A DNA stretch of 64,000 bases from positions 1,408,001 to 1,472,000 of the forward strand of contig OY762428.1 in the NCBI GenBank assembly GCA_963665665.1, given 5' to 3'. Position 1 is the first letter of the stretch, and every line of letters starts with the position of its first letter. A model generated the notes under the pieces. It did not search any database. It was given only the letters and a program-made list of their open reading frames with translations, and was not told the origin of the DNA. The stretch is from Candidatus Kapaibacterium sp. (GTDB lineage Bacteria; Bacteroidota; Ignavibacteria; Kapaibacteriales; UBA2268). Of this stretch, positions 22,646 through 45,573 are shown in pieces. A program made the translations under genes and the position numbers.

Positions 22646-22929
22646 ACGTTTTTTTTGTGGGGGGATGTGTGATTATCTCTTATTAATCATTATTTTTTGA
22701 CGGTTTTTATTAGAACTTTTTTGATACCATTCTATATCCAAATATTACAACAATGTTAATTTTCTCACGCATTTTTTCAGTATAGTCATTGCTAAATTCA
22801 TTCTCCTAAACTTGCCTTTCTCCGGAAAATTTGCGATATTGGAAATTGTAAATATTGGGGGTGCTCGACGATAGATTAAGGTTTTTATCAATCATTGGGG
22901 CGCTGAACATTTGGAAACCAGAGGAACAC

Positions 22930-25900: not shown

Positions 25901-26580
25901 ATATAATTACACAGGCAGAAACACTGGAATATGATATTACCGGCATTGGCGAAGAAAGAAAACTGGAACTTGCCTGTGATATTCTGGACTTTGGCGAAGT
26001 AAAAACGGGTAGTGATAAGATTATTGCAGATACTGTGCTAATAAAGAATATTTCCTCGGAATCTATTAATATTACTAACGTTGGACAGCTCGGGCCGGAT
26101 ATGGATCAATTCCGGATTATCAGCGGGGGCGAAGCTTTTACATTGGCTCCCGGCGAAGAACAAGAAATGACTTTGCTATTCAAACCAATATATACAGGCA
26201 GAACTTCCGGCCAGATTGGGTTTGAATACGATGGTACAGGAAGCCCTGCCAAAGTGCAATTATTTGGTGAAGGTGTTAGCCAGACTGATATTGAAGAGGA
26301 TTACATCTTAACTGATGAGAATTGTCATTTACGTGTTTCGCCAAATCCATCGACCGGAATCCTTCAGGCTAAAATAAAATTATCAAATCCTGCCGAAATT
26401 GATTTGATAATTATTAATTCATTAGGTGAAAAAGTATCAGATATTTATTCCGGTTATGTCCAGGAAAAATCAGCTAATATATTCAAGGCTGATATCAGCA
26501 ACCTTGCCAACGGTGTTTATTATGTTATCCTGAAAACACCCAACCAGCATTTTTTTGAAAAGGTGTTGGTGATAAGGTAA
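22930..26580 (+). CDS. T9SS-secreted multidomain protein (VWA, Ig/choice-of-anchor-D-like, beta-propeller repeats, CTD)
   Basis: Signal peptide; DISGS and FITDG MIDAS motifs; seven WQKCxGGS-type repeats; SPNP...GVYYV...K CTD. Confidence 0.9.
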   Translation: MKKAILTLLFLLPLAAQAQSLSVFDIDTSNFPVMKAKFWAFDENGEQIRNLLNSDFEITEDVEQKDMIRVSCPDQPALQAISSVLTIDISGSITGDIQTLTRKTAETWINLLPSGESECAITAFNSKNYMVQDFTNDKSRLLEKLNSLSQEGSSSFDAGFINPMSGALLAAEKGKNKKVVVFITDGNAVGDEQSIIQKANEVDAQVFCLTIGSDSPEILKNISEQTGGQWFDNINTIEKAEETCYKILHIAQGGEPCEIEWESSLRCDYSRVGLQVSVPALSLLSSNRYFPPESSIAELKFSPMAIYFRDKEPGQTADTTITITAIGSDYVITDIISSSPYFEINPKSFTLPEGESKELTVSYTPADSSYTFVKFAIVNNVCPDKYFYSSGGFSGIPPKEKTLKLTHPNGGEKFLVGSDTVITWEGILPSDKVSLDYSIDNGENWNKITDNAYNLRYRWEDIPKKESDECLISISQARNPIIPEIEWQRCYGGSSEDQVSCITQTDDNGYIFAGFTNSIDGNVSGNHGKFDFWITKIDLIGAIKWQKCLGGSNREYANSIEQTIDGGYIVAGYTYSNDNDISRQNGKDDYWIVKLNGSGDIEWEKSFGGSHEDIATSVALTDDGGFVIAGQSRSNDGDVTENYGWFDIWLVKLSSSGNMVSQRILGGDENDIASSIQQTNDKGFILSGYTYSNNIDVSGSHGWEDYWIVKLNSKFDIQWQKCFGGSEDDKAKKIIQTTDNGYIIIGSTQSPDGDVSNWKSARDFWVVKIDENGEIQWEKCLGGFSNDVASSIIQTSDGGFIILGVSESGFIEGPKNHGGCDFLIIKLSFQGEIEWQKFLGGTESDCPTSIQQTNDGGFILSGYTESDDGDVSGNHGDRDGWIVKLSSEGKIDQSDTSDAVFSIVAPLAEARSIDMGREIVGDMKDSLFVDFIVNTGEYKVRVDSIYFTGADANAFAQVSAFPVYEIDVNKAQSTEFRFIPNRVGLHTAKLNIITQAETLEYDITGIGEERKLELACDILDFGEVKTGSDKIIADTVLIKNISSESINITNVGQLGPDMDQFRIISGGEAFTLAPGEEQEMTLLFKPIYTGRTSGQIGFEYDGTGSPAKVQLFGEGVSQTDIEEDYILTDENCHLRVSPNPSTGILQAKIKLSNPAEIDLIIINSLGEKVSDIYSGYVQEKSANIFKADISNLANGVYYVILKTPNQHFFEKVLVIR

Positions 26581-30475: not shown

Positions 30476-31624
30476 ATGGCTTGTAATTTTTTTAGTATAA
30501 TAAAAAAACTTGATAATCATTCGCCTTATTTTAAATCGGCAATATCAATATCTGAAATTTTTTTCGATTATGATTATGACTCCCAATTTCAACTTGCAGG
30601 GCTATTCTTCCCTGATTTTCTGAACGATAGAACCTGCAACGAAGAAATATCTTCAATTGCAGGTCAGGAAATAGCTGACCTGTGTGAACGCAGTATAATT
30701 GTTTTCAATAAAATCAGTGAGTCCGATCGTAGTTCAATCAGCACAAAAGAGTTCCCAATTGATGCTTTATTACTTATAAATGCACATTTGCTATCTGAAT
30801 TAAGAGAAATTTTCGAAAATTATATATCCATCGGCCGTGATGTATGGAAGGAATATAAAACCGGCAGCAAGGGTAAATTTGAACAGTTTCGTAAATTTGC
30901 CGATGTTCTTGAAAACAACAAAGATAGCAGGCTTGATATTCTAAGGGGGCCGTTCCAAAGGGAACTTGATGAATTCTATCTCAGGGTAAAAGATGATAAG
31001 TCGCGTCGCGGTGATTATATAGAGTGGGCGGACGTACTATCTATAATAAATTCCAACAAAAACAAAAATCCGTTGGCAATGGAAAAAATCGGGGAGAAAT
31101 TGTGGAATATTTTTGACGAGAAAGGCCTGACAAAATATGAGGATGAATTTGATAAAAAGAAAATTTTTCTGCGAATAATCACATTATTTGAAATTATCAG
31201 GGAATTTGAAAACCTCGCGGCTAATATCCTGATTACCGAGGCTGAAAACGATTACAGGTTGTACCTTTTAAATAATTTGAATATCGACTGTGAGTGCCTG
31301 CAAAGGATATCAGGAAATTATTATATTCAGTCCTCCGAATTGGAAACCCTGCTGAATTGTGCTATGAACAAAGAAAAAGACTGTATTGCTTCTGCCCTGA
31401 TCCAAAAATTCAACAAATACGAAATTTTTGAACTTCTCCTGTCCGGTTTTATCATCGATGATGATATTGAGGATGACGAAGAGCTGAGTGAAGAAGAAAT
31501 ACGTGAATTAACATTCGAGAATTGCTACAATCGTGTTCTTGCTGATGAAGACGGCCCCGGTGGCTACCGCGAAATGCGAATATTTGACTGGATAGGGAAT
31601 TCTTTTAAGTTAAAGGTATTATAG
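30476..31624 (+). CDS. Hypothetical acidic helical protein
   Basis: 382-aa ORF with no recognised motif. Confidence 0.65.
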   Translation: MACNFFSIIKKLDNHSPYFKSAISISEIFFDYDYDSQFQLAGLFFPDFLNDRTCNEEISSIAGQEIADLCERSIIVFNKISESDRSSISTKEFPIDALLLINAHLLSELREIFENYISIGRDVWKEYKTGSKGKFEQFRKFADVLENNKDSRLDILRGPFQRELDEFYLRVKDDKSRRGDYIEWADVLSIINSNKNKNPLAMEKIGEKLWNIFDEKGLTKYEDEFDKKKIFLRIITLFEIIREFENLAANILITEAENDYRLYLLNNLNIDCECLQRISGNYYIQSSELETLLNCAMNKEKDCIASALIQKFNKYEIFELLLSGFIIDDDIEDDEELSEEEIRELTFENCYNRVLADEDGPGGYREMRIFDWIGNSFKLKVL

Positions 31625-31719
31625 ATACTCGGAATAGAGTAAACTTTCTGGTAATATTTCTCTCTGAAAATTTAGCTATTTTTTTTATATTTATTTTTTT
31701 CAAAAACGGAGCTTAAGAA

Positions 31720-31995
31720 ATGGAACAGGAAAAAAAATATACTGCTAATCCAAATATTGTATTAAGAGTAGAATTTGATGACTGGGGAATATTATTTGAT
31801 CCTGATACCGGTAAAAGCAAAGGACTTTCTCCAACCGGGATTTTTATATGGCAAAAACTTGACGGCACAAGAACAAAAGATGAAATTCTGAAAGATCTTA
31901 ATGACGCATGCGAAGGCGGGATACCTGAAACAGCATCCGATGAATATGATGCTTTCATAGCCCAGCTACAGGAACTCGGGTATTTATCAGTATGA
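31720..31995 (+). CDS. scmD: PqqD-family RiPP recognition element (SynChlorMet ScmD-like)
   Basis: ANPNIVLRVEFDDWGILFDPDTG...LSPTGIFIWQKLDG...FIAQLQELGYL. Confidence 0.88.
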   Translation: MEQEKKYTANPNIVLRVEFDDWGILFDPDTGKSKGLSPTGIFIWQKLDGTRTKDEILKDLNDACEGGIPETASDEYDAFIAQLQELGYLSV

Positions 31996-33137
31996 AACCC
32001 ATATCCGAAAAACCTAAAAGAGTAATGTACTCCCCCAAAAAAGTTGACCTTACAATAACCGGAAAATGCAATCTTCGCTGCATATACTGCTTTCATTTCA
32101 ATAGTCCGGCGGATATTCCTAAAGATTTGACAACTGATGAATGGCTACAATTCTTTGAAGAACTAAACGCAGCAAATGTTCTCAGCGTAAGTGTCAGCGG
32201 TGGCGAAGCCTTTGTTCGCAAGGACTTCAATGAAATAATTGAAGGAATCGTACGAAACAGAATGCGCTTCAATATCCTTTCCAACGGAACTCTGATAACT
32301 GATGAAAAGGCTGAATTCCTTGCAAGTACTAAGCGCTGCGATTCCGTTCAGGTTTCTATTGACGGCCCGAATAGCAGTGTCCATGACCTTACCTGCGGGA
32401 CAGGTTCTTTCGAAAAGGCAGTCAGGGGACTCCAGGCATTAAAAAAATTTGGTATTAACCGTGCAGTAAGGCTGACGATAACCAAGCAGAACTACATGTA
32501 CTTAGAAGAAGCTGCCGATACTCTTCTCGGTGAACTTGGCCTGAGATCTTTCAGTACAAATTCGGCTTGTCCATTCGGTATGACGAAAAAGGATGCTGAA
32601 AACATCATGCTCGGACCTGATGAATTTGCCAAATCAATGGAATTGCATAGCCGGGTTATAAAAAAATATGGCAACAGAATATCAGCACAGGCAGGGCCTC
32701 TATCCTGCCACACTCATTGGAGTGAAAACGAGTATAAAGTAGAAAACAAGGTGGCTCCCAAACCGGGCGGAGGATACCTGACAAGCTGCGGAGGAGTTTT
32801 CAGCAAACTTTCTGTCAGGTCTGACGGTACAATAACTCCCTGCACTCAGATGCCCCATATTGAACTTGGCAGGATTAACCGGGATAATTTCCTGGATATC
32901 TGGCAAAATCATCCTGAACTGAAAAGGTTAAGAGAACGCAGGCTTATTCCGCTTTCTGATTTCGAGTATTGCCGGGATTGTAAATATATGCCTTATTGTC
33001 GGGGCGGGTGTCCTGCAAATGCTTATGAACTGCATGGTGATGAGAATCATCCGGTTTATTCAACTGACAGTTGTTATAAGAAGTTTCTTGAAGAAGGCGG
33101 TAAATTGCCTATAAAAGAAATTGAAGAAATTAAATAA
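31992..33137 (+). CDS. scmE: Radical SAM/SPASM peptide maturase (ScmE-like)
   Basis: CNLRCIYC, SGGE, QVSIDG; SPASM C...PC...CRDC.....CRGGCP. Confidence 0.88.
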   Translation: MKPISEKPKRVMYSPKKVDLTITGKCNLRCIYCFHFNSPADIPKDLTTDEWLQFFEELNAANVLSVSVSGGEAFVRKDFNEIIEGIVRNRMRFNILSNGTLITDEKAEFLASTKRCDSVQVSIDGPNSSVHDLTCGTGSFEKAVRGLQALKKFGINRAVRLTITKQNYMYLEEAADTLLGELGLRSFSTNSACPFGMTKKDAENIMLGPDEFAKSMELHSRVIKKYGNRISAQAGPLSCHTHWSENEYKVENKVAPKPGGGYLTSCGGVFSKLSVRSDGTITPCTQMPHIELGRINRDNFLDIWQNHPELKRLRERRLIPLSDFEYCRDCKYMPYCRGGCPANAYELHGDENHPVYSTDSCYKKFLEEGGKLPIKEIEEIK

Positions 33138-33163
33138 TCTGTGAAACTTAAAATATTAAATAG

Positions 33164-34339
33164 ATGTTTGAAACTAATGACCTATCGTGCACTGTACCTA
33201 ATAAATTATATCCAAAACCGGATTGCGGCTATTATCTTGGCTGTATTTATTTTTATATCCTTGAAGGTTGCAACCTGAAATGCAGGCACTGCTGGATTAA
33301 CCCTCCTTTTGAATCAGACAGCAAAAAGCCTAAATATCCATTCGTGGATATCGAACTTTTTAAGCATATCATAGAAGAGGCTACTCCACTTGGATTGAAC
33401 TCAGTGAAACTTACCGGCGGCGAACCACTTATCCATCCGGAAATTGAAAAAGTAATAAAACATGTTCATGAAAAGAACCTGAAATTAAATATTGAAACAA
33501 ACGGTGTTGCTATCACTCCTGCTTTGGCAAAATTAATTTTAGCTTCAAAGAAAAGAGTAAATCTTTCTGTCAGTATTGATTCTCACAAGCCGGAAGTTCA
33601 CGAATGGGTTCGCGGCGTTCCCGGATCATTCAATGATGCCGTACGCGGTGTGAAAACCATGGTGGCCGAAGGTTTCCATCCCCAGGTTATCATGTCTATC
33701 ATGAACAATACTTATAAGGACGTTGAAGGCCTTGTGCAGCTTGCCGAATCCATTGGTGCCGGCTCTGTAAAATTCAATCTGGTTACGCCCACAGCCCGCG
33801 GAGAAAAGATGCACGAACGCGGTGAAGTTCTTACAGTTGAGGAATTATTCAATCTCGGTAAATTTATCGAAGAAGAATTACAGCCGAAATCAAAGATCAG
33901 GCTGATATATTCATACCCACCGGCATTCAGGACGGTAAGAAATATTAAGCGAAGGCCTAATATTGCAGGCTGTGGGATATTCAGGATAATTGGCGTTCTT
34001 GGTACCGGAAAATATGCACTATGCGGAATTGGCGAAAGCCTTCCGGACTTTATATTCGGGGATGCGAAAACAGACAGCCTCAAAGAAGTCTGGAATAACA
34101 ACCCCATGTTGAACAGGATAAGGAAAGGCCTTCCATCCGAACTTACCGGAGTATGCTCTGACTGCATAATGAAACAGGGTTGCCTTGGTTCATGTATTGC
34201 AAATAATTACTATGATTCGGGAAATTTATTTGCACCTCACCGCTTCTGCCGTCTTGCTTATGAAGAAGGTTTCTTCCCGAAATCAAGGCTTGTACCAGGT
34301 AGCGAATATGATAAGAATTATTCAGAGATCAGAAAATAA
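33164..34339 (+). CDS. scmF: Radical SAM/SPASM peptide maturase (ScmF-like)
   Basis: IYFY...GCNLKCRHCWI, KLTGGEP, CGI...IGVL..G.YALCGIG, CSDC...CLGSCIANNY. Confidence 0.88.
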   Translation: MFETNDLSCTVPNKLYPKPDCGYYLGCIYFYILEGCNLKCRHCWINPPFESDSKKPKYPFVDIELFKHIIEEATPLGLNSVKLTGGEPLIHPEIEKVIKHVHEKNLKLNIETNGVAITPALAKLILASKKRVNLSVSIDSHKPEVHEWVRGVPGSFNDAVRGVKTMVAEGFHPQVIMSIMNNTYKDVEGLVQLAESIGAGSVKFNLVTPTARGEKMHERGEVLTVEELFNLGKFIEEELQPKSKIRLIYSYPPAFRTVRNIKRRPNIAGCGIFRIIGVLGTGKYALCGIGESLPDFIFGDAKTDSLKEVWNNNPMLNRIRKGLPSELTGVCSDCIMKQGCLGSCIANNYYDSGNLFAPHRFCRLAYEEGFFPKSRLVPGSEYDKNYSEIRK

Positions 34340-34405
34340 ACAAACCTTCCGAATATTCTGAATCTTAGGAAGGTTATACATCAAACTGAGAGAAAAAATT
34401 TTATA

Positions 34406-35314
34406 ATGCTCTACTATAAAGTATATAACCTGATTATCAAATCAGAAATGGAATTCCCTGAATTTAATTCCGTTTCTGCTGAACCTGTTGACAAGCCGGA
34501 TGTATTTATACATTTCGGCGAAGTTCGGGAAAGACTCCCCTACCCAACCAAACTTGGCGTTTGTTATACCTTGGGGAAAAATGTACTCCACCTGAATATC
34601 CCCGGTATAGCCCGATACCTGGTATGGAAAGGCAATGAGATAATTATTGATCCGGCAGAGGAAGCAGCAACTGATGCTGTCAGGTCTTTTATTTTCGATG
34701 CACCAATCAGTTGCATTATGCACCAGAGAAATATGCTGCCAGTTTACGGAGCCGCAATAAAAAATGGAGATCAGGCTTTTATGGTTATCGGAATTTCCGG
34801 CAACGGTAAATCCACAGCGGCCTTTGAACTGATTAAGCGTGGATATAAACTCATATCGGATGATATAAGCGTAATTTCTGATTTCGATGGGAAATTGACT
34901 GCCCTGCCCGCTTATCCATCAATAAAACTGCCTCTTGATACAATAAAAAGAGCGGATATGAATCCTGATGACTTTCCCACAATCAGGGATGGTATCGTTC
35001 AAAAAAGAATACCGGTAGATACAACAGATTTTTGTGATCAGCACCTTCCTATTGAAAAAATATATATTCTATCAGGTTGGAACAAAAGCGGTACTGAAAT
35101 AAAACAGCTTGAGGAAAATACAGCAAAATTCAACCTGCTTCATGATTCCATGCACAGGCAGTACCTGGCAGGTATGGGCGGAGGGTTTTCACTGGTAAAG
35201 ATCACGGCCAAACTGATGAGCACAATGCCGGCGGCACAGATTGTACATTCCAGGAATGTAAAAGATATCGACAAAATGATTGATATGATCGAGGAGGATT
35301 TGAAAAATGAATAA
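34406..35314 (+). CDS. HPr kinase-like P-loop protein (RiPP-cluster kinase type)
   Basis: YKVYNL.I.SE, GISGNGKST Walker A, LISDD, PAYPSIKL. Confidence 0.8.
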   Translation: MLYYKVYNLIIKSEMEFPEFNSVSAEPVDKPDVFIHFGEVRERLPYPTKLGVCYTLGKNVLHLNIPGIARYLVWKGNEIIIDPAEEAATDAVRSFIFDAPISCIMHQRNMLPVYGAAIKNGDQAFMVIGISGNGKSTAAFELIKRGYKLISDDISVISDFDGKLTALPAYPSIKLPLDTIKRADMNPDDFPTIRDGIVQKRIPVDTTDFCDQHLPIEKIYILSGWNKSGTEIKQLEENTAKFNLLHDSMHRQYLAGMGGGFSLVKITAKLMSTMPAAQIVHSRNVKDIDKMIDMIEEDLKNE

Positions 35315-36167
35315 CGTAACGTGGCTGGCCTCTTACCCCAAATCCGGAAACACCTGGACCAGGGCTTTCCTGACAGCCCTTATGGGCAATATCTGTGAAG
35401 TAAATATTAACGGCCTCGGCAATATTACTATAGCCTCGGCTATGCTGCCTTTTGAATTTGCAACCGGAGTAAGGGCATCCGACCTGACAGATGATGAGAT
35501 CGAAACACTCAGGCCCGAAGCTCACAGGTTTCTTGCAGAAATGAATGAAAATCATTATTTCCTGAAGGTACACGATGCCTACATCTATACTGCAAAAGAA
35601 GAACCAATGTTCCCCACGGACGCAACCCACAGTGCGGTATACCTCCTGCGAAACCCACTGGATGTGGCCGTTAGCTGGGCAAACCATAGTGGAATTACAA
35701 TTGAAAACTCCGTTAACCAGCTTTGCAATCCCAAACAGGCCTTATCCCAAACAGGCCCTGCCGGAAATATCGGAAACCAGCTAAGGCAAAGGATGTTTAC
35801 CTGGGGCGGACATGTGGAAAGCTGGATAAACGCTAAAGAGATAAAAGTACTTACTATTCGCTACGAGGATATGAAAGCAGATGCCGTCAGGGAATTCTCA
35901 AGGCTTGTTGACTTCACCGAACTCGGGAAAACGAAAGAAGAAATCATTGCCGCCGAAGAAGCCTGCCGTTTCGAAAAACTAAAAAAACAGGAAGAAGAAA
36001 AGGGCTTTCGCGAGAAGAGGGCCGGATGTGAAAACTTTTTTAATAAAGGGAAAACCGGCTACTGGAAAGATGAACTCACAGAAGAACAGGTAAAGAAAAT
36101 CATCGATACTAATTTCGATATGATGCTGAAATTCGGGTATATTGATGAGGATAGTGTTCCTGTTTAA
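35307..36167 (+). CDS. PAPS-dependent sulfotransferase
   Basis: WLASYPKSGNTW, KVH, YLLRNPLDVAVS, W..HVESW, RYEDM, FFNKG..G.W. Confidence 0.92.
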   Translation: MNNVTWLASYPKSGNTWTRAFLTALMGNICEVNINGLGNITIASAMLPFEFATGVRASDLTDDEIETLRPEAHRFLAEMNENHYFLKVHDAYIYTAKEEPMFPTDATHSAVYLLRNPLDVAVSWANHSGITIENSVNQLCNPKQALSQTGPAGNIGNQLRQRMFTWGGHVESWINAKEIKVLTIRYEDMKADAVREFSRLVDFTELGKTKEEIIAAEEACRFEKLKKQEEEKGFREKRAGCENFFNKGKTGYWKDELTEEQVKKIIDTNFDMMLKFGYIDEDSVPV

Positions 36168-36254
36168 CATTACATAGGATTTTATTTTTTATTTTTCATA
36201 ATTTTATTATTTTTAATAAATTATGGATTATCTTAATTCAAAGGAGTATTTAAG

Positions 36255-36494
36255 ATGGAAGAAACCAAAACAATACAATATTGCTCCCCGGAAGTAGTTG
36301 ATTTCAAGTGGATGGCTGTTTTAGGTGATTGTACTAATAATGGATCAGATCCGGGAGCATACTGTACTTCAAATGGAGGCATTGCAACGCAGGCATGCGA
36401 CTATAACGGATCTGGGGCTGTCGGAGGATGCGCTTCTAATGGTGCCAGTGCTACAACATGCGGGAACGGAGCCGGTACCGGCACCGGCGGATAA
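36255..36494 (+). CDS. RiPP precursor peptide 1 (79 aa; 11-mer CxxNG repeats)
   Basis: AAGGAG RBS; leader YCSPEVVDFKWM; core with five Cys. Confidence 0.85.
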   Translation: MEETKTIQYCSPEVVDFKWMAVLGDCTNNGSDPGAYCTSNGGIATQACDYNGSGAVGGCASNGASATTCGNGAGTGTGG

Positions 36495-36543
36495 ATTAAA
36501 TATCTCATGCTCCTCCACACAAGCTGCTGAAAATTATTTCCAG

Positions 36544-36578
36544 ACAACTCTGGAAAAATGATCATACCGGAGTTGTTT
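36544..36578 (+). terminator. Hairpin after precursor 1
   Basis: ACAACTCTGG...CCGGAGTTGT then TT. Confidence 0.45.
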
Positions 36579-36748
36579 ATTATTAACCTTGTACTTTAAA
36601 TTAACAATCAAGTATTAATATAATCAAATTTTTATTCTAATACATTTCACAATTACTCAAAACAACCAGTACTATCAAATTTTAATTGCAAAACTTCATC
36701 TTTTTCTTTATATTATTGATATAAATAATCTTATTAAGGAATATTATA

Positions 36749-36967
36749 ATGGATGAATTAGAAAAAATTCATTACTGCACTCCTGAAATAGTCGACTTTA
36801 AATGGATGAAAATATTTGGCGATTGTATATCCCATGGTACAGGGGATTCAACCCGGTGTTCTGCCAATGGGTCAACAGCAGGAGGTACAAAATCTGCAAC
36901 CAAAGGATGTACCAGTGTCGGTTTACTTGCAGATAATACCTGTAAAGCCGGACTAAAGGCTTTTTGA
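36749..36967 (+). CDS. RiPP precursor peptide 2 (72 aa)
   Basis: TAAGGA RBS; leader YCTPEIVDFKWM; four Cys in Cxx(x)G. Confidence 0.82.
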   Translation: MDELEKIHYCTPEIVDFKWMKIFGDCISHGTGDSTRCSANGSTAGGTKSATKGCTSVGLLADNTCKAGLKAF

Positions 36968-37020
36968 CCGATTATTAGAAACCGGTATAATTGCCTGAAT
37001 GATTATTTCGGTTTATTAAT

Positions 37021-38178
37021 TTACAACAAACCAACTTTTACGGATACCCCGAATTCTTCGCTGAGCTTAGAATAATTCTCGCCTGTTAGGTCGTCCCCGA
37101 ATCTGTCAAAGGGATTGTTTGGAAGAACAATATGGTCGATAGAAATTTTCTGGTCTTTATACTTTTCAAACGCCTTTATAAGTGCTTTCCTGAAGTCTTC
37201 AACCATTAACAGGCCTGAACAAATTATATTTCCTTCGTAGGTATAATTCTTTACACATTCCGAATAGTGATTGTTCGGCACAAAAGGCAGGTTTTTTTCA
37301 ATTATTTCTTTGCCCCTTGCGTATGCCGCTTCAGAAAACATCCAGAGAACATTTCTAAACCCCTTATTAAATGAGCCAATCATAAATTGATAAGGATCGA
37401 AATTCAAAGGTTTGTTCAAATCAGGACGTACATCCAGGTCGATTTTGTACTTCTTTCTCATTTTCGCAAAGAAATCACTCATTTCAACAAGATCAACATC
37501 CATTATCTCTTTTAGTTCAGGCCCCGCATTTTTGCTCCACCCGGGAAGATAAACCAATACTTTCTTCACATAGAACATCAGTGCCTGAATCGTTTTTTCA
37601 ATATCTTCATAACCTACCAGTTTCGGCAGCGGAACCATGGCGGCATCCACAAAGAAGCCTTCTTTCAAAAGCCTGTAAAAGGAATTCCGGGCTATTTGGA
37701 ATTTTTCTATCTTGTTTTTATAAATCCGGCTCCAGTTCCCGGGATTATCAGAGTGATAGGAGATAGTAAATTTCATTGGTTTAAAAGGCAGAAGCTCCTT
37801 TATAAATTCCTCTGTAAACAGGGTTCCGTTTGTATTAACCTGGATGACTCTGCCCGGAATTTTTTCGCGTATGAGCTTCAAAATAGTAAAAATGTCCGGA
37901 TGCAGAAGTGCCTCACCCTCGGATACTCTGCCCGGCAGGCTGTCCCCTATCCTGATATCGGCATTAGATTTTGTATCCAATATGGCAATACCCTTCTTAA
38001 TATCATCAAGTGAGCGAAAACCTTCCCTGTATATTTCAAATGGGTTCATATCGTTTGAACAGAAAAGACATTTGGCATTGCAAACAGAGGAAACAGGCAA
38101 TTGATTAGTATATCCGCCTGCAAGAGTTTCGTACATAAATTTACTTATCTCAATTCCGCCCATGATAATTCCTGACAA
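37021..38178 (-). CDS. Radical SAM protein with DUF512-like C-terminus (NifB/MoaA-related Fe-S oxidoreductase)
   Basis: CNAKCLFC, EGEALLHP, NTNG; C-terminal N..Y.GNI.CSGLL.VEDF, LP...FD..G.DL.G. Confidence 0.8.
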   Translation of the reverse strand: MSGIIMGGIEISKFMYETLAGGYTNQLPVSSVCNAKCLFCSNDMNPFEIYREGFRSLDDIKKGIAILDTKSNADIRIGDSLPGRVSEGEALLHPDIFTILKLIREKIPGRVIQVNTNGTLFTEEFIKELLPFKPMKFTISYHSDNPGNWSRIYKNKIEKFQIARNSFYRLLKEGFFVDAAMVPLPKLVGYEDIEKTIQALMFYVKKVLVYLPGWSKNAGPELKEIMDVDLVEMSDFFAKMRKKYKIDLDVRPDLNKPLNFDPYQFMIGSFNKGFRNVLWMFSEAAYARGKEIIEKNLPFVPNNHYSECVKNYTYEGNIICSGLLMVEDFRKALIKAFEKYKDQKISIDHIVLPNNPFDRFGDDLTGENYSKLSEEFGVSVKVGLL

Positions 38179-38401
38179 TAATACTATTCAAAGCCTGACA
38201 TATACTTCGCAACATATCTTTGGAATAAAATAAATAATTTTTTTTGCAGCAGCAAATTTATGTTTCCAGATAAAAAGAAAAAGTATTATTTGGTATTACT
38301 TCTTCAAACAAATTGCCATTTTAAATTTCCGCTACTAAATATCATCACAGGTTATTATTTTGTAAAAATTTTTGTTTTTGAATTTTCATAGGAACTTAGG
38401 G

Positions 38402-38593
38402 ATGGAAGGAACTGTGATATTATCTTATTGTACGCCTGAAGTTATTGATTTCAAGTGGATGGATTCAGTAGGCTTATGTAACCCCGGATCTGGGGACTCT
38501 TCAAATTGCTCTGATGGTAATGTTGCAAGTACGATTTGCAACCAGGGAAATACAGCAGGGGTTAATTGCTTTGTTGGCCCTGACTTTTCATAA
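38402..38593 (+). CDS. RiPP precursor peptide 3 (63 aa; 10-mer CxxG repeats)
   Basis: Leader YCTPEVIDFKWM; core CNPG, CSDG, CNQG, CFVG. Confidence 0.82.
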   Translation: MEGTVILSYCTPEVIDFKWMDSVGLCNPGSGDSSNCSDGNVASTICNQGNTAGVNCFVGPDFS

Positions 38594-38626
38594 TTAATTA
38601 TTGTTTTACAAATATTGAGTATTGTT

Positions 38627-38833
38627 ATGGAAGAGGCAGGAAGAATAAAATATTGCATACCGGAAGTTGTTGATTTCAGGTGGATGGGTGTTCTTGGTCA
38701 CTGTACAAATGGAACTTCCGCAGCTCATGCCGGAGGTTCGAATTGCTCTCAGGGAAGTAGTGCGGATTCAGTTTGTAATATTGGAAATGATGCATATAAC
38801 TGTGCTGCCAATGGTAATGTTGTTTCAAGTTAG
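38627..38833 (+). CDS. RiPP precursor peptide 4 (68 aa)
   Basis: Leader YCIPEVVDFRWM; core CTNG, CSQG, CNIG, CAANG. Confidence 0.82.
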   Translation: MEEAGRIKYCIPEVVDFRWMGVLGHCTNGTSAAHAGGSNCSQGSSADSVCNIGNDAYNCAANGNVVSS

Positions 38834-38924
38834 ATTCGTATCAATTAAAAAATTTCTGAATAATTGAATTAACAGATAAAATTCATTAATTTGGGTTTTA
38901 TCTGTTTTATTATTTAGATAAAGT

Positions 38925-39800
38925 ATGGAATATATTTTTAACCTGGCAAATGGCAGAAAATGGAAGCTAAAGTCATTATCCGAAAAAACTGATTTCGTAA
39001 CAGGAAATTATGCCCGTGTTTGTTCAATGAAAGAATCTTCAAACAACATCGACTGCGAAATTTCCTGTTTTGTGGATACAACTGAAGAAGTAAATGAATA
39101 TCGAAAGTACCATCCTGATTATATTGAAACCGGAAGAAAAGATTACGTTCGAATATTTTTCTCTCCCGATTATAAAGAAAGCATGGTATTCTTCAATCCG
39201 GAAAATCTTGATCACGAAAATCTGAAGTATTTATCTACAAATTATATTTCACGGGCATATCAGATACAGGCAATAAAAAACTACAAGGCTCTCCCCTGCC
39301 ATTGCGCACTGGTGGAAATTGAGGGCAAAGGCGCAGTGATCGGAGCCGTGGGTGATTGCGGAAAATCCACTTGCGCTACAAGGCTCCCCCATCCACACAA
39401 GGCCCTTGCCGATGATTATGCAATGATATTTCCCGTGAACGGGGATCTGATTGCACAGGCCATGCCCACCTGGAGCGTTTTCATAGGGGGCGACAGGGAT
39501 TACCGGGCAAACTGTTCTCAATCAACAATGGTAAAATCATTTTTCTTCCTTAAACAAAGTAAAACTGACTATGTAGAACGCACCAACGGAGTAATAGCCC
39601 ACCAGCATTTGAACAATAATTTTCAGGATCTGCTTGCCCTGAGGGTTTTGAAGGACCAACCTGAAGGCTTTGGCGAGGAAATACGCACTAAGATATTCGA
39701 TATGGCCGGGAAAATATCCGGGAAGTGGCCTACTTATTTTCTTCATGCCACACTTCATGGTGATTTCTGGAATAAAATGAATGAAGTGATGGAGGAATAA
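38925..39800 (+). CDS. scmC: SynChlorMet cassette protein ScmC-like (HprK-related P-loop)
   Basis: LANG..W, LPCHCALVEIEGKGAVIGA.GDCGKSTCA.RLP....ALADD, PTWS, GDFW. Confidence 0.82.
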   Translation: MEYIFNLANGRKWKLKSLSEKTDFVTGNYARVCSMKESSNNIDCEISCFVDTTEEVNEYRKYHPDYIETGRKDYVRIFFSPDYKESMVFFNPENLDHENLKYLSTNYISRAYQIQAIKNYKALPCHCALVEIEGKGAVIGAVGDCGKSTCATRLPHPHKALADDYAMIFPVNGDLIAQAMPTWSVFIGGDRDYRANCSQSTMVKSFFFLKQSKTDYVERTNGVIAHQHLNNNFQDLLALRVLKDQPEGFGEEIRTKIFDMAGKISGKWPTYFLHATLHGDFWNKMNEVMEE

Positions 39801-39804
39801 AGCC

Positions 39805-40413
39805 ATGCAGCGAATTACCGATTACGACTATACCGGCCCCAGTATGAAGCGGGTTTTCAAACCCGCCGACGGCCTGATTATTGATCAGAATACTGATTTC
39901 AATGCTCTAAAACCCGGGGATATAATAAATTTTAAACCACCCGGAAATATTCATCATATTGTTCACCGTATAATAAAAAAAACAGCGGAAGGATATATTA
40001 CCCGTGGCGATAATAACAGCGGTCCCGATCCATATATTATTACCCCGGAATTCAATCCCAGTCTGGTTGTTGCTATTCGCCGCGGAAAAAAAGACATAAA
40101 ACTATACCGTGGAAAGATTGGAGTGATGATACATCATAAAAACCTGATGTTAAAGAAACTGCAGGTCTATACTAAATCCCCTTTGAAAAGAATATTGGAT
40201 AGAATTTCAGATGCCGGTATATTTTATAAACTCCATTTGTATGACAACAAAATTGAAGTTAAGCAATACAGAAATAACAATTTCTCGCAGAAAATCCTTT
40301 TCCTTGGAAAAAAGCAGATTGGACGGAAGATTCAATCCGAAGAATGGAATATCCGGCAACCGTGGCGGCTTTTCATTGATCCGAAAATTCTGGATGAGGC
40401 AAACCAAAAATGA
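39805..40413 (+). CDS. S24/S26-family peptidase (putative leader peptidase)
   Basis: YTGPSM (catalytic Ser), PGDII.F, IVHRII, TRGDNN..PD. Confidence 0.82.
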   Translation: MQRITDYDYTGPSMKRVFKPADGLIIDQNTDFNALKPGDIINFKPPGNIHHIVHRIIKKTAEGYITRGDNNSGPDPYIITPEFNPSLVVAIRRGKKDIKLYRGKIGVMIHHKNLMLKKLQVYTKSPLKRILDRISDAGIFYKLHLYDNKIEVKQYRNNNFSQKILFLGKKQIGRKIQSEEWNIRQPWRLFIDPKILDEANQK

Positions 40414-40458: not shown

Positions 40459-42027
40459 TCATTTTCCAATTATAAGCCTTTTCATAGCATGCTCTCCGGA
40501 TTCGGAGCTTATTGCCACAAGGTACATTCCGGTTTTAAGATTCCCCAGGGAAACTTTGATTTCTTTTGTTCCCAGATTATATTTCGAAGGTTGGATCAGG
40601 TTTTTAATAAATTTTCCGCTTATATCATGTAGTGAAACTGTGTAAGTGTTCTCCCGGAGAACTATAAAACTGACTGTTGTTTCATTTATTGCCGGGTTAG
40701 GATATAAATTCAATTCAGCAATTGATTCTGACTGCATACGGCAAACATCAAAGAATGATTCCTGATCAGACAGCCCTTTGCAGGCGCTTTCATAAGCAAT
40801 TTCATTTTTCTTGAGTTCACTGAGTATTTTCAGTTCCTTCCTGATAGGAGCAGCGTACCTTTCAGGAATAGCATTCAGGAACTCTTCATTGGGTATGAAC
40901 CAAAGATAGCAGTCAACAGACAGGTCTTTTTCCGGATTGTCCAGAAATTCAGACGGAGGGCTACTTAATTTCACAGGAACAAGATAATTAGAGCGCAACT
41001 CGGTTCTCATAGCCTCAAGTTTAACAAATTCTTTAGTATATTTTTCCTTAATTGCCAAATTTTCCGATGCACTTCGCCCGTAGCCATCCCTCATTTCATC
41101 TAATGCATTTTCTGTTTTTGCAAGCTGCCGGTAGTATTCACTTGTTTGTTCGTCCCCGAAATGAAGCAGAGGAGAGTATATCATATTTGAATGTAATTCA
41201 ATCGACCAAAGTACTGGCGCTACCCGGGAATAATCTTTATAGTCCCATCCTGTATATTCAATATCCTTATCTCCGAATTGAGCGGTATATTTATACCTGA
41301 TTTCATCGGTATCATTGAATTTCAGCGGATTCCGAACTGAACTCAGCCTGGTTCCTTCCACATCGAATTCATCGTACTTTTTCCAGGCTATAATACTTTT
41401 GGATCGAAATAGTACCGGTTCGGTGAAAGTAGTATCATATCCGGATTTTGCCATTCGTTTCTTCCAGTATCCGCGTTTAGGGGCCAGAAACAGTTCCTCG
41501 GTTATATAAGAATACGAGTTCCCGTTAAATTCAATATTAAGATTTTTCAACTCCTCGGGATTCAATTCTAATACGCTTAGGCCGGTTATATCCTGATCGG
41601 TATCTAACCTGCTTTTTACTTCTTCATTCGCAGGTTTGGTTTGTTTAAGTTTTTCAGCATATTCTCTCGCTAATTCATCCGCAGATACAGGTTTTTTCTC
41701 AGTGGTATCAGCTAAAATATACGATTCAGAAACTACGGGTTTATTGTTGTCATTTGTTTGAATTGTCTCGGTTTTCACAGTCTCTTCAGCCTGAGATTCC
41801 GTTACTTCATTATTGTTCAAAGTATTCAACAGCATTATCGCCGGGATTAAAATTGTTAACAGCATAACATACCAATATTTTTTAAACATTTTTTTGATTT
41901 TGTTTTGTTGATGACTATCAAGCGCTTGATTGGTATCCAACAATTCATCAATATCCTCTTTCGAGTAAATATTTTCAATTTTTAAACTTTTATTAGCGGT
42001 TTTCAGGTATTTATCTATATTTTTCAT
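40459..42027 (-). CDS. Anti-sigma-like membrane protein with C-terminal T9SS-type domain
   Basis: Overlaps the ECF stop; TM helix near residue 55; LYPNPA...GMYLV...KRLII CTD. Confidence 0.75.
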   Translation of the reverse strand: MKNIDKYLKTANKSLKIENIYSKEDIDELLDTNQALDSHQQNKIKKMFKKYWYVMLLTILIPAIMLLNTLNNNEVTESQAEETVKTETIQTNDNNKPVVSESYILADTTEKKPVSADELAREYAEKLKQTKPANEEVKSRLDTDQDITGLSVLELNPEELKNLNIEFNGNSYSYITEELFLAPKRGYWKKRMAKSGYDTTFTEPVLFRSKSIIAWKKYDEFDVEGTRLSSVRNPLKFNDTDEIRYKYTAQFGDKDIEYTGWDYKDYSRVAPVLWSIELHSNMIYSPLLHFGDEQTSEYYRQLAKTENALDEMRDGYGRSASENLAIKEKYTKEFVKLEAMRTELRSNYLVPVKLSSPPSEFLDNPEKDLSVDCYLWFIPNEEFLNAIPERYAAPIRKELKILSELKKNEIAYESACKGLSDQESFFDVCRMQSESIAELNLYPNPAINETTVSFIVLRENTYTVSLHDISGKFIKNLIQPSKYNLGTKEIKVSLGNLKTGMYLVAISSESGEHAMKRLIIGK

Positions 42028-42590
42028 GATTCAGCCTCAATGAAATTTCCTTTTGAATTTATATTTTCAGGAATTTCCGCCCCGAGTAATTTTCTTAGTT
42101 TTGTTTTCGCCCTGTGCAATCTTACCTTTACAGCCGGAAGTGACGCCTTCTGTATTTCACATATTTCTTTAAGTTTAAAGCCGAAAATTTCATGCAGCAC
42201 TACTACTTCTCTAAGTTTTTCACTCAATTTATCCAAAGCTGCGTAAAGTATCTTTATATCTGCAAGTTTTTCGGCATTTTCTGCATTCGAAAACATTTCA
42301 TCAATAACTTCATTAGTCATACTGTAAGTCTTACTGGATTTCCGGAAATATTTTATTTTTGTCCTTCTTGCTATTGTAAGAACAAAGCTGAGGAATGATT
42401 CATGTTTTTTCAGTTTTTCGAAGTTCTCGTAAGCCTGTAGTATTGTTTCCGAGATAATATCCTTTGCGTCATCCCTGCTGCCAGAAATTGAATATGCAAA
42501 CCTTTCCAGCTTTGGATATACCCCATCCAATAATTCCATGAAGAGTTGCTTTTTGTTTTCAAAGCCTGTCATTTCAATTCCTTGTTTCAC
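42024..42590 (-). CDS. ECF RNA polymerase sigma-70 factor
   Basis: DAKDIISET, F.SF.LTIARR, LREVVVL..IFGFKLKEI, VKVRLHRAK. Confidence 0.92.
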   Translation of the reverse strand: MKQGIEMTGFENKKQLFMELLDGVYPKLERFAYSISGSRDDAKDIISETILQAYENFEKLKKHESFLSFVLTIARRTKIKYFRKSSKTYSMTNEVIDEMFSNAENAEKLADIKILYAALDKLSEKLREVVVLHEIFGFKLKEICEIQKASLPAVKVRLHRAKTKLRKLLGAEIPENINSKGNFIEAES

Positions 42591-43740: not shown

Positions 43741-45573
43741 ATGTTTAAAAGAATTACTATCCTGATACTTTTTGTTTTTTCTGCTAATGTTTTATTCGCT
43801 CAATTTCCAATAAAAATTGAAGTCAATTCTGACGGATCAATATCAGAATCACCTGTTACAAAAGAAGGTGTGAAATATATTATTACAATTACGGGAACTT
43901 ATTCAATGTGGCCTCAGTTTGAAGATTGTCATGGAGCTGATGCCGGATATGTTTACGATGTACCACAGGAAGAAATCGATAATTTACGATGGCCACCTGA
44001 ATATATTGAAGTTGGTGGATTTAAAATTGAATTAGTAAAATTACCTCATTGGGTTGGTGACCCTAAAGTATGGTCTATCCCCCCTGAGGAAATTTCAACA
44101 CCAATGTTTAAAATGAGCTTTAGAGATTATAAGGGCTTTAGAATTGATGGAGAGCCAATTCCCAATACTGGATTTCAAGAATTAACTCATAGATATCAAA
44201 TTGAAAAAATTGGAACAGGAAACCCATTTATCTTCCAGATACTTGATTCTAACAGAAGTATTATCGAAGAAAGAACTGTCCCAAGGTATGAAGATAATTG
44301 TGGTTTTTTAACTATTGATATTGAAGAAGTGATTGTCAATAATGATGACGACGATGAAGAATTTGATATTTCTGTTGGAAATGTTGATTTCAGAAGAAAT
44401 AACGATGGAAAAATTGATGGCAGAAAGATTGAAGTTAGCATAGAAATCGAAGATTCTACAGAAATAGATGGTTCTAAAAACATCCTGGAAGATATCCCGA
44501 TTGACAATATTGGTATTATATATGATGGCAAAATTATTTGTGATATCGACTCAATAATTTGTAATGAAAGAACAGAACCCGTATCGATAGGTTTATTAAT
44601 CGATCGAACTGAAAGTATGGGAGGCCCTATAAGTGAAGAAGATATGACACAAAGAATGAGTGCCTCAAAAGAAGCATTAAAAAACTTTGTTGAAGTTTTA
44701 TTAGATGAAGATGAAGCTTTTGTTATGTCATTTTCTGAAGATACAAGAATGGATCAAACATGGACAAATGATAAGACACTACTAAAAGATGCAATCGACG
44801 GATTAGAACCCGACGCGCTTACTGCCGTGTGGGGAGCAATCAACACAGCTATTGATACATTATCACTAAGCGATGACCCCAATCGTTTTCTTGTTGTATT
44901 ATCAGATGGTGGTAATACATTCCCTCCAGAATGGGACGAAAGTCAAGTATTAATCAAAGCACAATCAAAAAATATCAAAATATTTATCGTTGCTTTAGGT
45001 TTTTCTCAATTGCAAATAGATCAGGATGGCAGAGCAAAGCTTGAACAGGTAGCTGAAGTTTCCGGTGGTAAAATATTCGATGTCTATAATTCTGAACAAT
45101 TAAATACTGTTTATGAAAATCTTAGCGAAGAGCTTACAACTGAAGAAGATTGTTTTATTTATTTTTCTGCTGATAGTTGTGAACCTGGAAAAGAAGGTTG
45201 GATCAGGATAATATATGCTCCTAACGACTCGACAATAGTTACTGAAGTAATTAAATACAAATGCCCTGATGAACCTAATTCTGTATTTTGGGAAATTAAA
45301 TCTGAATATAAAGATGTTGAAAATTTAAATATATTCCCTAACCCAACCGATAGTAAAATATTTATTGATTTTGATTCACAAAAAGCTGAAAATATCATTA
45401 TTAAAATTGTTGATCTGAATGGAAAAGAAATTCTGAATAGTGATTTGGGGTGGATTGATATCGGGAAAAACTCATTTGAGTTTGACGTTTCAAAGCTGGC
45501 TCAGGGAAGCTATCAAATACTTTTTATCAGCAACGAAAGTATTATCGCAAAGAAAATTCTTATAGTTAAATAA
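43741..45573 (+). CDS. T9SS-secreted VWA domain protein
   Basis: Signal peptide; DRTESM, TA...AI, VVLSDG; FPNP...GSY CTD. Confidence 0.88.
   Translation: MFKRITILILFVFSANVLFAQFPIKIEVNSDGSISESPVTKEGVKYIITITGTYSMWPQFEDCHGADAGYVYDVPQEEIDNLRWPPEYIEVGGFKIELVKLPHWVGDPKVWSIPPEEISTPMFKMSFRDYKGFRIDGEPIPNTGFQELTHRYQIEKIGTGNPFIFQILDSNRSIIEERTVPRYEDNCGFLTIDIEEVIVNNDDDDEEFDISVGNVDFRRNNDGKIDGRKIEVSIEIEDSTEIDGSKNILEDIPIDNIGIIYDGKIICDIDSIICNERTEPVSIGLLIDRTESMGGPISEEDMTQRMSASKEALKNFVEVLLDEDEAFVMSFSEDTRMDQTWTNDKTLLKDAIDGLEPDALTAVWGAINTAIDTLSLSDDPNRFLVVLSDGGNTFPPEWDESQVLIKAQSKNIKIFIVALGFSQLQIDQDGRAKLEQVAEVSGGKIFDVYNSEQLNTVYENLSEELTTEEDCFIYFSADSCEPGKEGWIRIIYAPNDSTIVTEVIKYKCPDEPNSVFWEIKSEYKDVENLNIFPNPTDSKIFIDFDSQKAENIIIKIVDLNGKEILNSDLGWIDIGKNSFEFDVSKLAQGSYQILFISNESIIAKKILIVK

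Follow-up and report, generated by a model that had tools for sequence, protein, structure and literature searches.

Four paralogous ScmA-type precursor peptides predicted within a divergent SynChlorMet cassette of Candidatus Kapaibacterium

The window analysed here is a stretch of 64,000 nucleotides from Candidatus Kapaibacterium sp. (contig OY762428.1, positions 1,408,001 to 1,472,000 of the forward strand). It holds four short paralogous open reading frames (ORFs) that probably encode ScmA-type precursor peptides made on the ribosome, acting as substrates of the SynChlorMet (Scm) cassette that surrounds them. The assignment draws on their position among the genes for ScmC, ScmD, ScmE and ScmF, on a leader under purifying selection that is followed by variable Cys-module cores, and on the co-occurrence of related peptides with scm genes in other genomes. 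SynChlorMet cassettes occur in many anaerobes and archaea; they have a name in NCBI annotation and are chemically unstudied, and no publication on them was found in the open-access literature, subscription journals lying mostly outside that search. The precursor family itself is already catalogued (NCBIfam TIGR04252, ScmA), and the peptides of the window are new, divergent members of it.

The precursor ORFs and their shared leader

The four ORFs, referred to as precursors 1-4, are as follows.

36255-36494, forward strand: precursor 1, 79 residues from an ATG, five core Cys modules
36749-36967, forward strand: precursor 2, 72 residues from an ATG, four core Cys
38402-38593, forward strand: precursor 3, 63 residues counted from the ATG, four core Cys
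38627-38833, forward strand: precursor 4, 68 residues counted from the ATG, four core Cys

Precursors 3 and 4 were entered in the ORF list with TTG starts (38372-38593 and 38615-38833). For precursor 3, a start at the ATG at 38402 agrees better with the alignment of the paralogues, and the ATG at 38627 gives the 68 residues of precursor 4. The similarity among the precursor copies starts at the start codon, and precursors 1-3 and one of two orphan copies found elsewhere in the genome are preceded, at a distance of a few bases, by an AGGA-like stretch.

The leader motif reads YCSPEVVDFKWMAVLGDC, YCTPEIVDFKWMKIFGDC, YCTPEVIDFKWMDSVGLC and YCIPEVVDFRWMGVLGHC in the four precursors, in exact agreement with the shared form YCxPE(V/I)(V/I)DF(K/R)WM-x3-G-x-C, followed by four to five Cys modules, that had been described in the initial annotation. 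Aligned over its full length, the N-terminus is M-E/D-x5-6-Y-C-x-P-E-(V/I)-(V/I)-D-F-(K/R)-W-M-x3-G-x-C, and the residues invariant in all four precursors are M1, Y9, C10, P12, E13, D16, F17, W19, M20, G24, C26, G30, C37, G41, A44 and C59. The core begins in each case 14 residues past the leader Pro and is built from four to five modules of the form C-x2-3-G-x-x-(D/A)-x3-C. All of the units quoted earlier (CTNNG, CTSNG, CDYNG and CASNG; CNPG, CSDG, CNQG and CFVG) were found, and 11 of the 13 core Cys spacings fall in the range of 9-11 residues claimed for most of them (11, 11, 11 and 10 in precursor 1; 11, 17 and 11 in precursor 2; 10, 10 and 10 in precursor 3; 14, 10 and 9 in precursor 4).

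The precursor leaders are under purifying selection. Over leader codons 1-26, comparison of the six paralogues of this genome, i.e., the four precursors and the two orphans, gives a proportion of synonymous differences (pS) of 0.40-1.00 versus a proportion of nonsynonymous differences (pN) of 0.05-0.39; over codons 9-20 the differences number 41, 30 and 82 at codon positions 1, 2 and 3, and the ratio of nonsynonymous to synonymous substitution rates (dN/dS) for the two orphan copies is 0.02. The cores are far less alike: paralogue pairs are 38-96% identical in the leader and 21-43% in the core in 27 of 28 cases, the exception being precursor 2 and P0003, a near-identical homologue from another assembly. 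Together with the position of the ORFs in the cassette, these identities give in silico support to the earlier proposal of a conserved leader with a diversified core served by one enzyme set.

Relatives of the peptides were collected in an exhaustive search of 1.84 billion representative proteins, which returned 123 matches at E ≤0.001, 19 of them at E ≤1e-10. The leader motif is carried by 110 of the 121 relatives fetched; two of the matches, P0034 and P0096, proved to be unrelated repeat proteins and do not enter any family count. An extra (D/G)FxWM block in the leader, which then takes the form YxxPE(V/I)(V/I)(D/G)FxWM, marks a subfamily of 16 among 119 representatives, here called the FxW type. 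When a profile was built from 95 family representatives of other organisms, this genome and the entire FxW-leader subfamily being excluded, precursors 1, 2, 3 and 4 were recovered among the 1368 stop-to-stop ORFs of the window at E values of 7.1e-19, 2e-17, 2.5e-17 and 2.1e-14, and the next-best window ORF at 2.9; the 95 had first been retrieved with a profile containing the peptides of the window, so the test is not fully independent.

None of precursors 1-4 has a Pfam or NCBIfam match at E ≤0.01, and the called proteins of the 5,458,198-base contig include precursors 1 and 3 only, as could be expected from the remark in the initial annotation that such ORFs are easily missed. That annotation had overlooked the existing model of the precursor family (TIGR04252), and also that the Cys of the YCxPE motif is not conserved: it is present in 1 of 16 FxW-type representatives. 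The same residue was considered as a possible modification site, which was judged unlikely given a Ser at this position in P0003, a Glu in the two orphans, and its rarity in the FxW type.

Genes of the surrounding cassette

The precursors are enclosed by the following genes, which were compared with 13 other Scm loci from species genomes, retrieved with a profile of 27 ScmC homologues.

31720-31995, forward strand: ScmD, a discrete PqqD-type peptide-recognition protein of 91 residues (TIGR04248, 87.4 bits; cut-off 100)
31992-33137, forward strand: ScmE, a radical SAM/SPASM enzyme (TIGR04250, 491.9 bits; cut-off 400)
33164-34339, forward strand: ScmF, a second radical SAM/SPASM enzyme (TIGR04251, 461.4 bits; cut-off 400)
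34406-35314, forward strand: a second HPr-kinase-like P-loop protein (Hpr_kinase_C, 31.7 bits; cut-off 33.3)
35307-36167, forward strand: a sulfotransferase (Pfam Sulfotransfer_1, 89 bits; cut-off 22)
38925-39800, forward strand: ScmC, an HPr-kinase-like P-loop protein (TIGR04249, 117.7 bits; cut-off 125)
39805-40413, forward strand: a SipW/SEC11-type (S26) peptidase of 202 residues (TIGR02228, archaeal signal peptidase I, 50.6 bits; cut-off 51.85)

ScmC, ScmD, ScmE and ScmF thus all lie within 31720-40413; the ScmC and ScmD models are the best hits of their proteins, yet just below their cut-offs. ScmD scores 48.6 bits with Pfam PqqD (cut-off 23.4), and its profile finds TbiB1 (E 6.9e-7), the PqqD-family protein 9x8z_B (1.8e-6) and TfuB1 (2.9e-5) among solved proteins. 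The end of its gene overlaps the start of that for ScmE by 4 nucleotides. In ScmE, Pfam Radical_SAM spans residues 21-176 and SPASM residues 266-331, and among solved proteins SkfB (6efn, E 7e-21) comes closest; ScmF has Radical_SAM at residues 32-193 followed by SPASM, with BlsE and PqqE as nearest solved proteins. Both enzymes open directly with the radical SAM domain and have no fused recognition domain, and they would depend on ScmD.

The ScmC profile matches HPr kinase (1jb1, E 5.7e-6), and its P-loop, G-K-[ST]-T, is invariant across the 27 homologues. The second HPr-kinase-like protein aligns with the ScmC profile (hhalign) with a probability of 80% and an E value of 1.4e-5 over 193 columns, and has a match in one of the 13 other Scm loci, which is weak (L022, 20% identity, E 1e-10). 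The sulfotransferase gene, whose start overlaps the end of this second kinase-like gene by 8 nucleotides, has no counterpart in any of the 13. The peptidase is present in 8 of the 13; its profile matches SEC11C (7p2q, E 5.7e-12) and SEC11A (1e-10), and S13, H54, D69 and D75 are invariant in nine cassette copies. Because a Ser at residue 13 leaves no N-terminal space for a membrane anchor, the protein is taken to be anchor-less, and we regard it as the candidate leader peptidase.

Core modules and proposed processing

Core features were counted in 118 representatives unless another number is given. Four Cys is the most common number (59 of 118), the distance from the leader Pro to the first Cys is 14-15 residues in 90, and successive Cys are spaced by 10 or 11 residues in 363 of 438 intervals. 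CxxG and CxxxG had been proposed in the initial annotation to be two registers, perhaps split between ScmE and ScmF. This division does not hold up, since the two forms follow the spacing and both occur at every Cys position: a C-to-G distance of 3 pairs with a Cys spacing of 10 (104 cases) and a distance of 4 with a spacing of 11 (172 cases), the distance from G to the next Cys being 7 in 276 of 355 modules. As read from these alignments, CxxG and CxxxG are one module with a one-residue indel, not two classes. The constant G-to-Cys distance points to a fixed eight-residue unit, G-x-x-X-x-x-x-C, with a linker of 2-3 residues after each Cys. Module 1 has the consensus G-S(81%)-G(51%)-D(57%)/A(26%), modules 2 and 3 have G-[NS]-[ST]-A (89% and 87%), and a tail of 6-8 residues extends past the last Cys in 80 of 119 representatives. 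G-x-x-(D/A)-x3-C is the probable reaction unit, and if ScmE and ScmF, or a kinase and a radical SAM enzyme, divide the labour, module 1 versus the later modules is a better candidate for the dividing line than CxxG versus CxxxG.

In the processing scheme suggested by these features, ScmD, as a stand-alone PqqD-type protein, would bind the leader in the manner of lasso and linear polyphosphorylated peptide (LPP) recognition proteins and hand the peptide to enzymes that lack a recognition domain of their own. The statement in the initial annotation that YxxP is a leader recognition motif of lasso peptides agrees with PMC13381572, where [Y/W]xxPx[L/V/I/F/A] is given as the motif read by discrete lasso recognition proteins, and the nearest solved relatives of ScmD are such proteins. 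Modelling of leader binding, a check proposed earlier, gave a score of 0.41 for ScmD with leader residues 1-40, against 0.00 for the best of three controls; runs agreed in at least 90% of contacts, with a predicted local distance difference test (pLDDT) value of at least 51 for the partner. Of 80 solved complexes, 58 attain the mark applied, as do 2 of 110 mismatched pairs, and scores of 0.60 or less comprise just 7 of the 80 solved complexes and both of the passing mismatches. Because similar complexes between recognition proteins and leaders have been solved, the pass may only reflect likeness to known structures, and the model is weakly supportive of ScmD-leader binding.

The anchor-less SipW/SEC11-type peptidase would remove the leader after the invariant Gly24, which places the Tyr of the motif at -16. 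Signal peptidases favour small residues at -1 and -3. Two positions before the first core Cys, 90 of at most 118 representatives have a Gly, and 81 have Ala, Gly or Ser four positions before it; since these residues fit the -1/-3 rule, a cut after Gly24 is likely. ScmE and ScmF would modify the repeated Cys modules. Our preferred guess, offered tentatively and with well below even confidence at best, is that thioether rings join each Cys to the conserved Asp/Ala four residues earlier; it is prompted by the regularity of the Cys, by the conserved Asp/Ala position and by SkfB being the nearest solved relative of ScmE. ScmC, and in this cassette also the second HPr-kinase-like protein and the sulfotransferase, would put phosphate or sulfate on core Ser/Thr residues, the Ser of the module G-S-G-D being the most conserved candidate site. 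With variable cores and several precursor copies (four here and two orphans), a single enzyme set would process a small peptide library. The matters to be settled are thereby narrowed to the cut after Gly24, the G-x-x-(D/A)-x3-C unit, and module 1 versus the later modules.

Comparison with LPP, lasso and radical SAM peptide systems

Experimental precedent comes from the LPP clusters of Bacillota. According to the published account (PMC13381572, Nat Commun 2026), a YxxP leader is bound there by LppB, a discrete recognition protein that is also required for cleavage by LppS, a SipW-like peptidase in which S29, H68 and D93 are needed, and the HprK-like kinase LppK transfers several phosphates onto core Ser3; the account states that such peptidases were not previously described in this pathway type. 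The window holds the same core set, i.e., a recognition protein, a SipW-like peptidase with Ser, His and Asp, an HprK-like kinase and a YxxPx(V/L/I) leader, a likeness drawn from profiles of solved relatives, among them 9x8z_B, which presumably stems from that work, rather than from direct comparison with LppS, LppK and LppB. The LPP precedent covers three of the five conserved Scm proteins. The inferred Tyr position of -16 would be the same as in LppA, whose leader YxxPxVLxHQxIxFET is cut after T-1. LPP clusters have no radical SAM enzymes, which are nowhere mentioned in the account, and no Cys-module core, whereas the window has two radical SAM/SPASM enzymes. A further difference is that the NTP (nucleoside triphosphate) transferase and MsbA-like exporter of LPP clusters were not found among the window ORFs scanned.

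This precedent raises the alternative that the four ORFs are precursors, but that the defining step is an LPP-like phosphorylation, here with sulfation in addition, combined with leader removal, the radical SAM enzymes performing other chemistry such as epimerisation, C-C or C-N crosslinking, or Cys oxidation. In its favour, the cassette of the window has the same three components (recognition protein, SipW-like peptidase, HprK-like kinase) as the experimentally tested LPP system of PMC13381572 and further encodes a sulfotransferase and another kinase-like protein; the Ser of module 1 is conserved at 81%, and neither ScmE nor ScmF has a close characterised relative. On the other hand, Cys is the most regular feature of the core, with a spacing of 10-11 in 363 of 438 intervals, which is hard to explain if it is not a reaction partner, and SkfB, the nearest solved relative of ScmE, makes a Cys thioether. 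We consider this alternative unlikely, although it deserves to be taken seriously, and keep to thioether formation by ScmE and ScmF as the preferred guess.

With lasso peptide systems, the window shares the [Y/W]xxPx[L/V/I/F/A] leader as defined in PMC13381572, and the best solved relatives of ScmD are TbiB1 (5v1u/5v1v) and TfuB1 (6jx3). Unlike in lasso clusters, no macrolactam cyclase (C) and no B2 cysteine protease came up when the 15 larger ORFs of 22855-45573 were scanned, and the cores are without lasso features.

Sactipeptide and ranthipeptide systems resemble the Scm cassette in combining radical SAM/SPASM enzymes with Cys-bearing cores, and SkfB is the solved protein nearest to ScmE (E 7e-21). 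The substrates of PapB are reported to contain repeated CxxxD units, which the Cys-to-acceptor repeats of the precursors recall. Maturases of the SkfB, AlbA, PapB and StsB type carry a fused N-terminal recognition domain. The Scm cassette differs in having a separate ScmD and two maturases, and ScmE and ScmF score far below the cut-offs of the SkfB, AlbA, PapB and StsB models. The geometry would also differ, because the candidate acceptor in the Scm peptides precedes the Cys by four residues instead of following it.

Occurrence with scm genes in other genomes

Seven of the 13 ScmC loci (L014, L015, L016, L020, L022, L023 and L024) have one to eight small ORFs adjoining the cassette that combine [Y/F/W]xxPx-hydrophobic leaders with Cys-module cores. 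These loci come from Deltaproteobacteria metagenome-assembled genomes (MAGs), Syntrophaceae, KSB1, Methanocellaceae, Methanoregulaceae and Methanolinea, and an eighth genome of the set has such a peptide on a different contig. Two of the eight ScmA-like ORFs in L014, a Deltaproteobacteria MAG, are odd: the copy at 9882-9971 ends after 30 residues, and that at 11440-11964 continues past its third module into unrelated sequence; they may be broken copies or assembly errors.

Among 251 genomes of a phylum sample, in which ScmE and peptide counts were taken as one sample, ScmE is over its cut-off in five. The peptide profile matches four of these five and none of the 246 ScmE-negative genomes, so that homologues without scm genes, which the initial annotation had looked to as a possible refutation, did not appear there. 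The peptides of the four other positive genomes have WxxP leaders. FxW-type peptides were absent from the 60 nearest relatives, and the FxW profile matched no genome contig and a single 1070-base metagenome fragment (L026). A search for related loci with the single ScmC protein returned nothing.

These distributions bear on another explanation, in which the ORFs only happen to adjoin scm genes and their products are small, unmodified proteins rich in Cys and Gly, for example metal binders or secreted peptides with disulfide bonds. Their cores are indeed rich in Cys, Gly, Asn and Ser, and the peptides are known from sequence alone. This explanation is very improbable in view of an N-terminus that is a recognition-protein binding motif and not a signal peptide, of the co-occurrence with ScmE at the genome level (4 of 5 versus 0 of 246), and of peptides adjoining the cassette in 7 of 13 distant loci.

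Relation to the curated ScmA model

TIGR04252 (SynChlorMet cassette protein ScmA, SCM_precur_ScmA) is an equivalog model of 49 positions with a cut-off of 35 bits. Residues 9-53 of precursor 3 align with its positions 1-48 (E 0.014, 15.6 bits), and precursors 1, 2 and 4 and the two orphans have no match even at E ≤10, so that none of the window precursors reaches the cut-off. The model is narrow, as judged from the fact that the cut-off is reached by none of 21 cassette-linked peptides (17 of them from other Scm loci; the best, from Methanocellaceae, at 22.7 bits) and by none of 56 representatives, ten of which match weakly at 14.9-22 bits. The curated model hence misses most real family members. 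By other marks of the family the window precursors do qualify: they lie in a cassette with ScmC, ScmD, ScmE and ScmF, they have an aromatic-x-x-Pro-x-hydrophobic leader and a Cys/Gly-rich core, and the occurrence of such peptides is restricted to ScmE genomes in the one phylum sample, made up of kin genomes. On this sequence evidence, the four precursors are divergent ScmA-type members that form a distinct lineage with an FxW leader.

The comparison with canonical SynChlorMet systems shows likenesses and differences. The gene set is the same, the TIGR04252 model starts at the aromatic-x-x-Pro just as the precursor 3 alignment does, and the Cys-module core resembles that of peptides next to canonical cassettes from Deltaproteobacteria MAGs, Syntrophaceae, KSB1 and methanogens. 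The window differs in the extra (D/G)FxWM block, in a separate ScmC clade, in the second kinase-like protein and the sulfotransferase, and in precursors that are split by a gene on the opposite strand. In public databases the family is poorly named: a look-up of ten ScmA-like proteins found four clusters with names, three of them "hypothetical protein" and one "glycoside hydrolase family 32 protein". The last name belongs to P0140, a 62-residue ScmA-like peptide from a Desulfobacterales MAG, and is an evident mis-annotation.

Several observations weigh against the assignment of the ORFs as ScmA-type substrates of the cassette. ScmC (117.7 versus 125 bits) and ScmD (87.4 versus 100) fall below their curated cut-offs, three of the precursors miss TIGR04252 and the fourth is far below its cut-off, and the cassette has no exporter. 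Five of the 13 ScmC loci (L013, L017, L021, L025 and L018, the last a locus of just 2.5 kb) have no adjoining peptide, nor was one found elsewhere in the four genomes searched. One ScmE-positive genome, G160, gave no peptide match in a search that left 16,000 of its bases outside, and because the counted genomes are kin, the four other positives coming from one family, the figures of 4 of 5 and 0 of 246 overstate independence. The precursors are known from sequence alone, a search for RNA runs over 34400-40400 having returned none, and the radical SAM chemistry is assigned by analogy to solved relatives of ScmE that differ among themselves: SkfB forms a thioether, SuiB a Lys-Trp link and PqqE a C-C bond, and anSME performs an oxidation.

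Neighbouring genes and features

Three further features lie upstream of, between or after the precursors.

30476-31624, forward strand: a 382-residue protein of unassigned family, upstream of ScmD (weak HD_4 match, 17.5 bits; cut-off 27.2)
37021-38178, reverse strand: a radical SAM protein that lacks SPASM, located between precursors 2 and 3 (Pfam Radical_SAM, 48.1 bits)
38871-38906, forward strand: a terminator-like hairpin after precursor 4, with a 15-pair stem followed by a T-rich tract

The 382-residue protein has no NCBIfam match and no counterpart in the 13 other Scm loci. The radical SAM protein on the reverse strand has 113 homologues in a wide family. Those of similar length are mostly 49-61% identical, a few homologues are named as Omnitrophica, Acidobacteriota or Elusimicrobiota, and some occur with PF04459; the 13 other Scm loci hold no true counterpart. 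Two close relatives have the gene at the same position, so that the lack of a 90%-identical homologue does not amount to its absence from relatives. Because the family is wide and well conserved and the gene is absent from the 13 other Scm loci, its membership in the pathway is doubtful.

The hairpin after precursor 4 has a predicted energy of -23.6 kcal/mol (z -5.8), and none of 200 shuffles was as good. Weaker hairpins lie downstream of precursors 1 and 2 (z about -2), that of precursor 1 being combined with a U-rich tract (z -2.0). Farther out, three large ORFs at 22855-26580, 40459-42027 and 43741-45573 have a C-terminal sorting domain of type IX secretion, two of them together with von Willebrand A domains, and a gene for an extracytoplasmic function (ECF) sigma factor lies on the reverse strand at 42024-42590, just downstream of the cassette.

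Paralogues, second cassette and strain variation

The two FxW-type orphans are a tandem pair in the same genome at C1:5279438-5279959 (L008 9438-9959), with the leader YEVPEVIGFEWM. They are 96% identical to each other in the leader and 29% in the core, and no scm gene lies within about 9 kb of the pair at 5.279 Mb; its neighbours, as read by eye, are a peroxiredoxin-like ORF and an ORF of 483 residues.

The spread of the paralogues argues against the precursors giving rise to a small redox cofactor in the way of PqqA, for pyrroloquinoline quinone (PQQ), or MftA, for mycofactocin, through a PqqD/PqqE-like pair. Such a role is brought to mind by the membership of ScmD in the PqqD family and by the scores of ScmE and ScmF with the PqqE and mycofactocin maturase models, which are far below the cut-offs. 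PQQ and mycofactocin precursors are single-copy, with an invariant reactive end. Here there are six paralogues with cores 21-43% identical, core length and module number vary, and one gene pair is replaced between close relatives, so we give the cofactor proposal very little credence. An origin of the ORFs by chance in AT-rich intergenic DNA, as their shortness and the absence of two of the four from gene calls might suggest, is scarcely credible, being contradicted by purifying selection on the leaders, by E values of 1e-14 to 1e-19 with the profile from other organisms, and by the 123 relatives that the search of 1.84 billion representative proteins returned at E ≤0.001.

A second, canonical Scm cassette lies near 3.06 Mb in the same genome, with a ScmC of 225.5 bits and leaders of the KYxKPxL type. 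Its proteins are 51% (ScmD), 53% (ScmE), 53% (ScmF), 27% (ScmC) and 34% (peptidase) identical to those of the window. More orphans of the KYxKPxL type are scattered in the genome. Among small ORFs of this kind are five located 12-22 kb past the end of the window, at C1:1487584-1491326 (L044 3584-7326), with KYxKPxL/KYxKLxL leaders and Cys-module cores; their type matches the cassette at 3.06 Mb, not that of the window. In the ScmC tree, the window protein belongs to a 12-row clade (support 100/99) that is separate from the canonical clade with the other ScmC of this genome, and the five rows putatively tied to FxW-type peptides, through contigs equal in length and source (36,314, 54,106 and 1,873 bases), are all in a subclade of seven (support 95/86). 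The window is a convenient test case, with four substrates sharing one leader, two more in the genome and a complete enzyme set, and the second cassette is a built-in control for leader specificity.

Contigs of relatives were compared with the window at 80% likeness, and "replaced" denotes a stretch that has diverged beyond that level or has been exchanged. One stretch is replaced between close relatives.

38265-38873, no strand assigned: replaced stretch with precursors 3 and 4, 642 other letters standing for 609 in X4/X5

In X4 and X5, which count as one sample, the contig covers 30400-38264 (with 106 differences in X4) and resumes at 38874, at the hairpin after precursor 4. The flanks of the replaced stretch are about 98-99% alike in close relatives. 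In the more distant relative X6, the first 394 letters are exchanged for 542, positions 38659-38759 are kept, and the next 114 letters are exchanged for 108; the part kept corresponds to precursor 4 from Pro12 through the first two modules.

From these observations a bolder proposal can be formulated: the window would represent a separate Scm lineage in which the extended leader is read only by its own ScmD, independently of the canonical cassette, so that two leader/recognition pairs are kept apart within a single cell; its products would carry several radical SAM-made rings and in addition be phosphorylated and sulfated; and the replacement of precursors 3 and 4 between near-identical strains would reflect diversifying selection on the cores. 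Taken as a whole this is speculative and we think it improbable. If true, the combination of several rings with phosphate and sulfate would be undescribed for such peptides, and the diversification of the cores would be as expected of molecules in microbial conflict.

The divergence of X4/X5 from the window varies along the cassette, from 1-2 differences per 900-1100 bases over ScmD/ScmE (31155-33179) to 23-38 per 860-1280 bases from 33866 onward, and a 110-base stretch in ScmC (39430-39539) is diverged at the same length. This pattern suggests past recombination inside the cassette.

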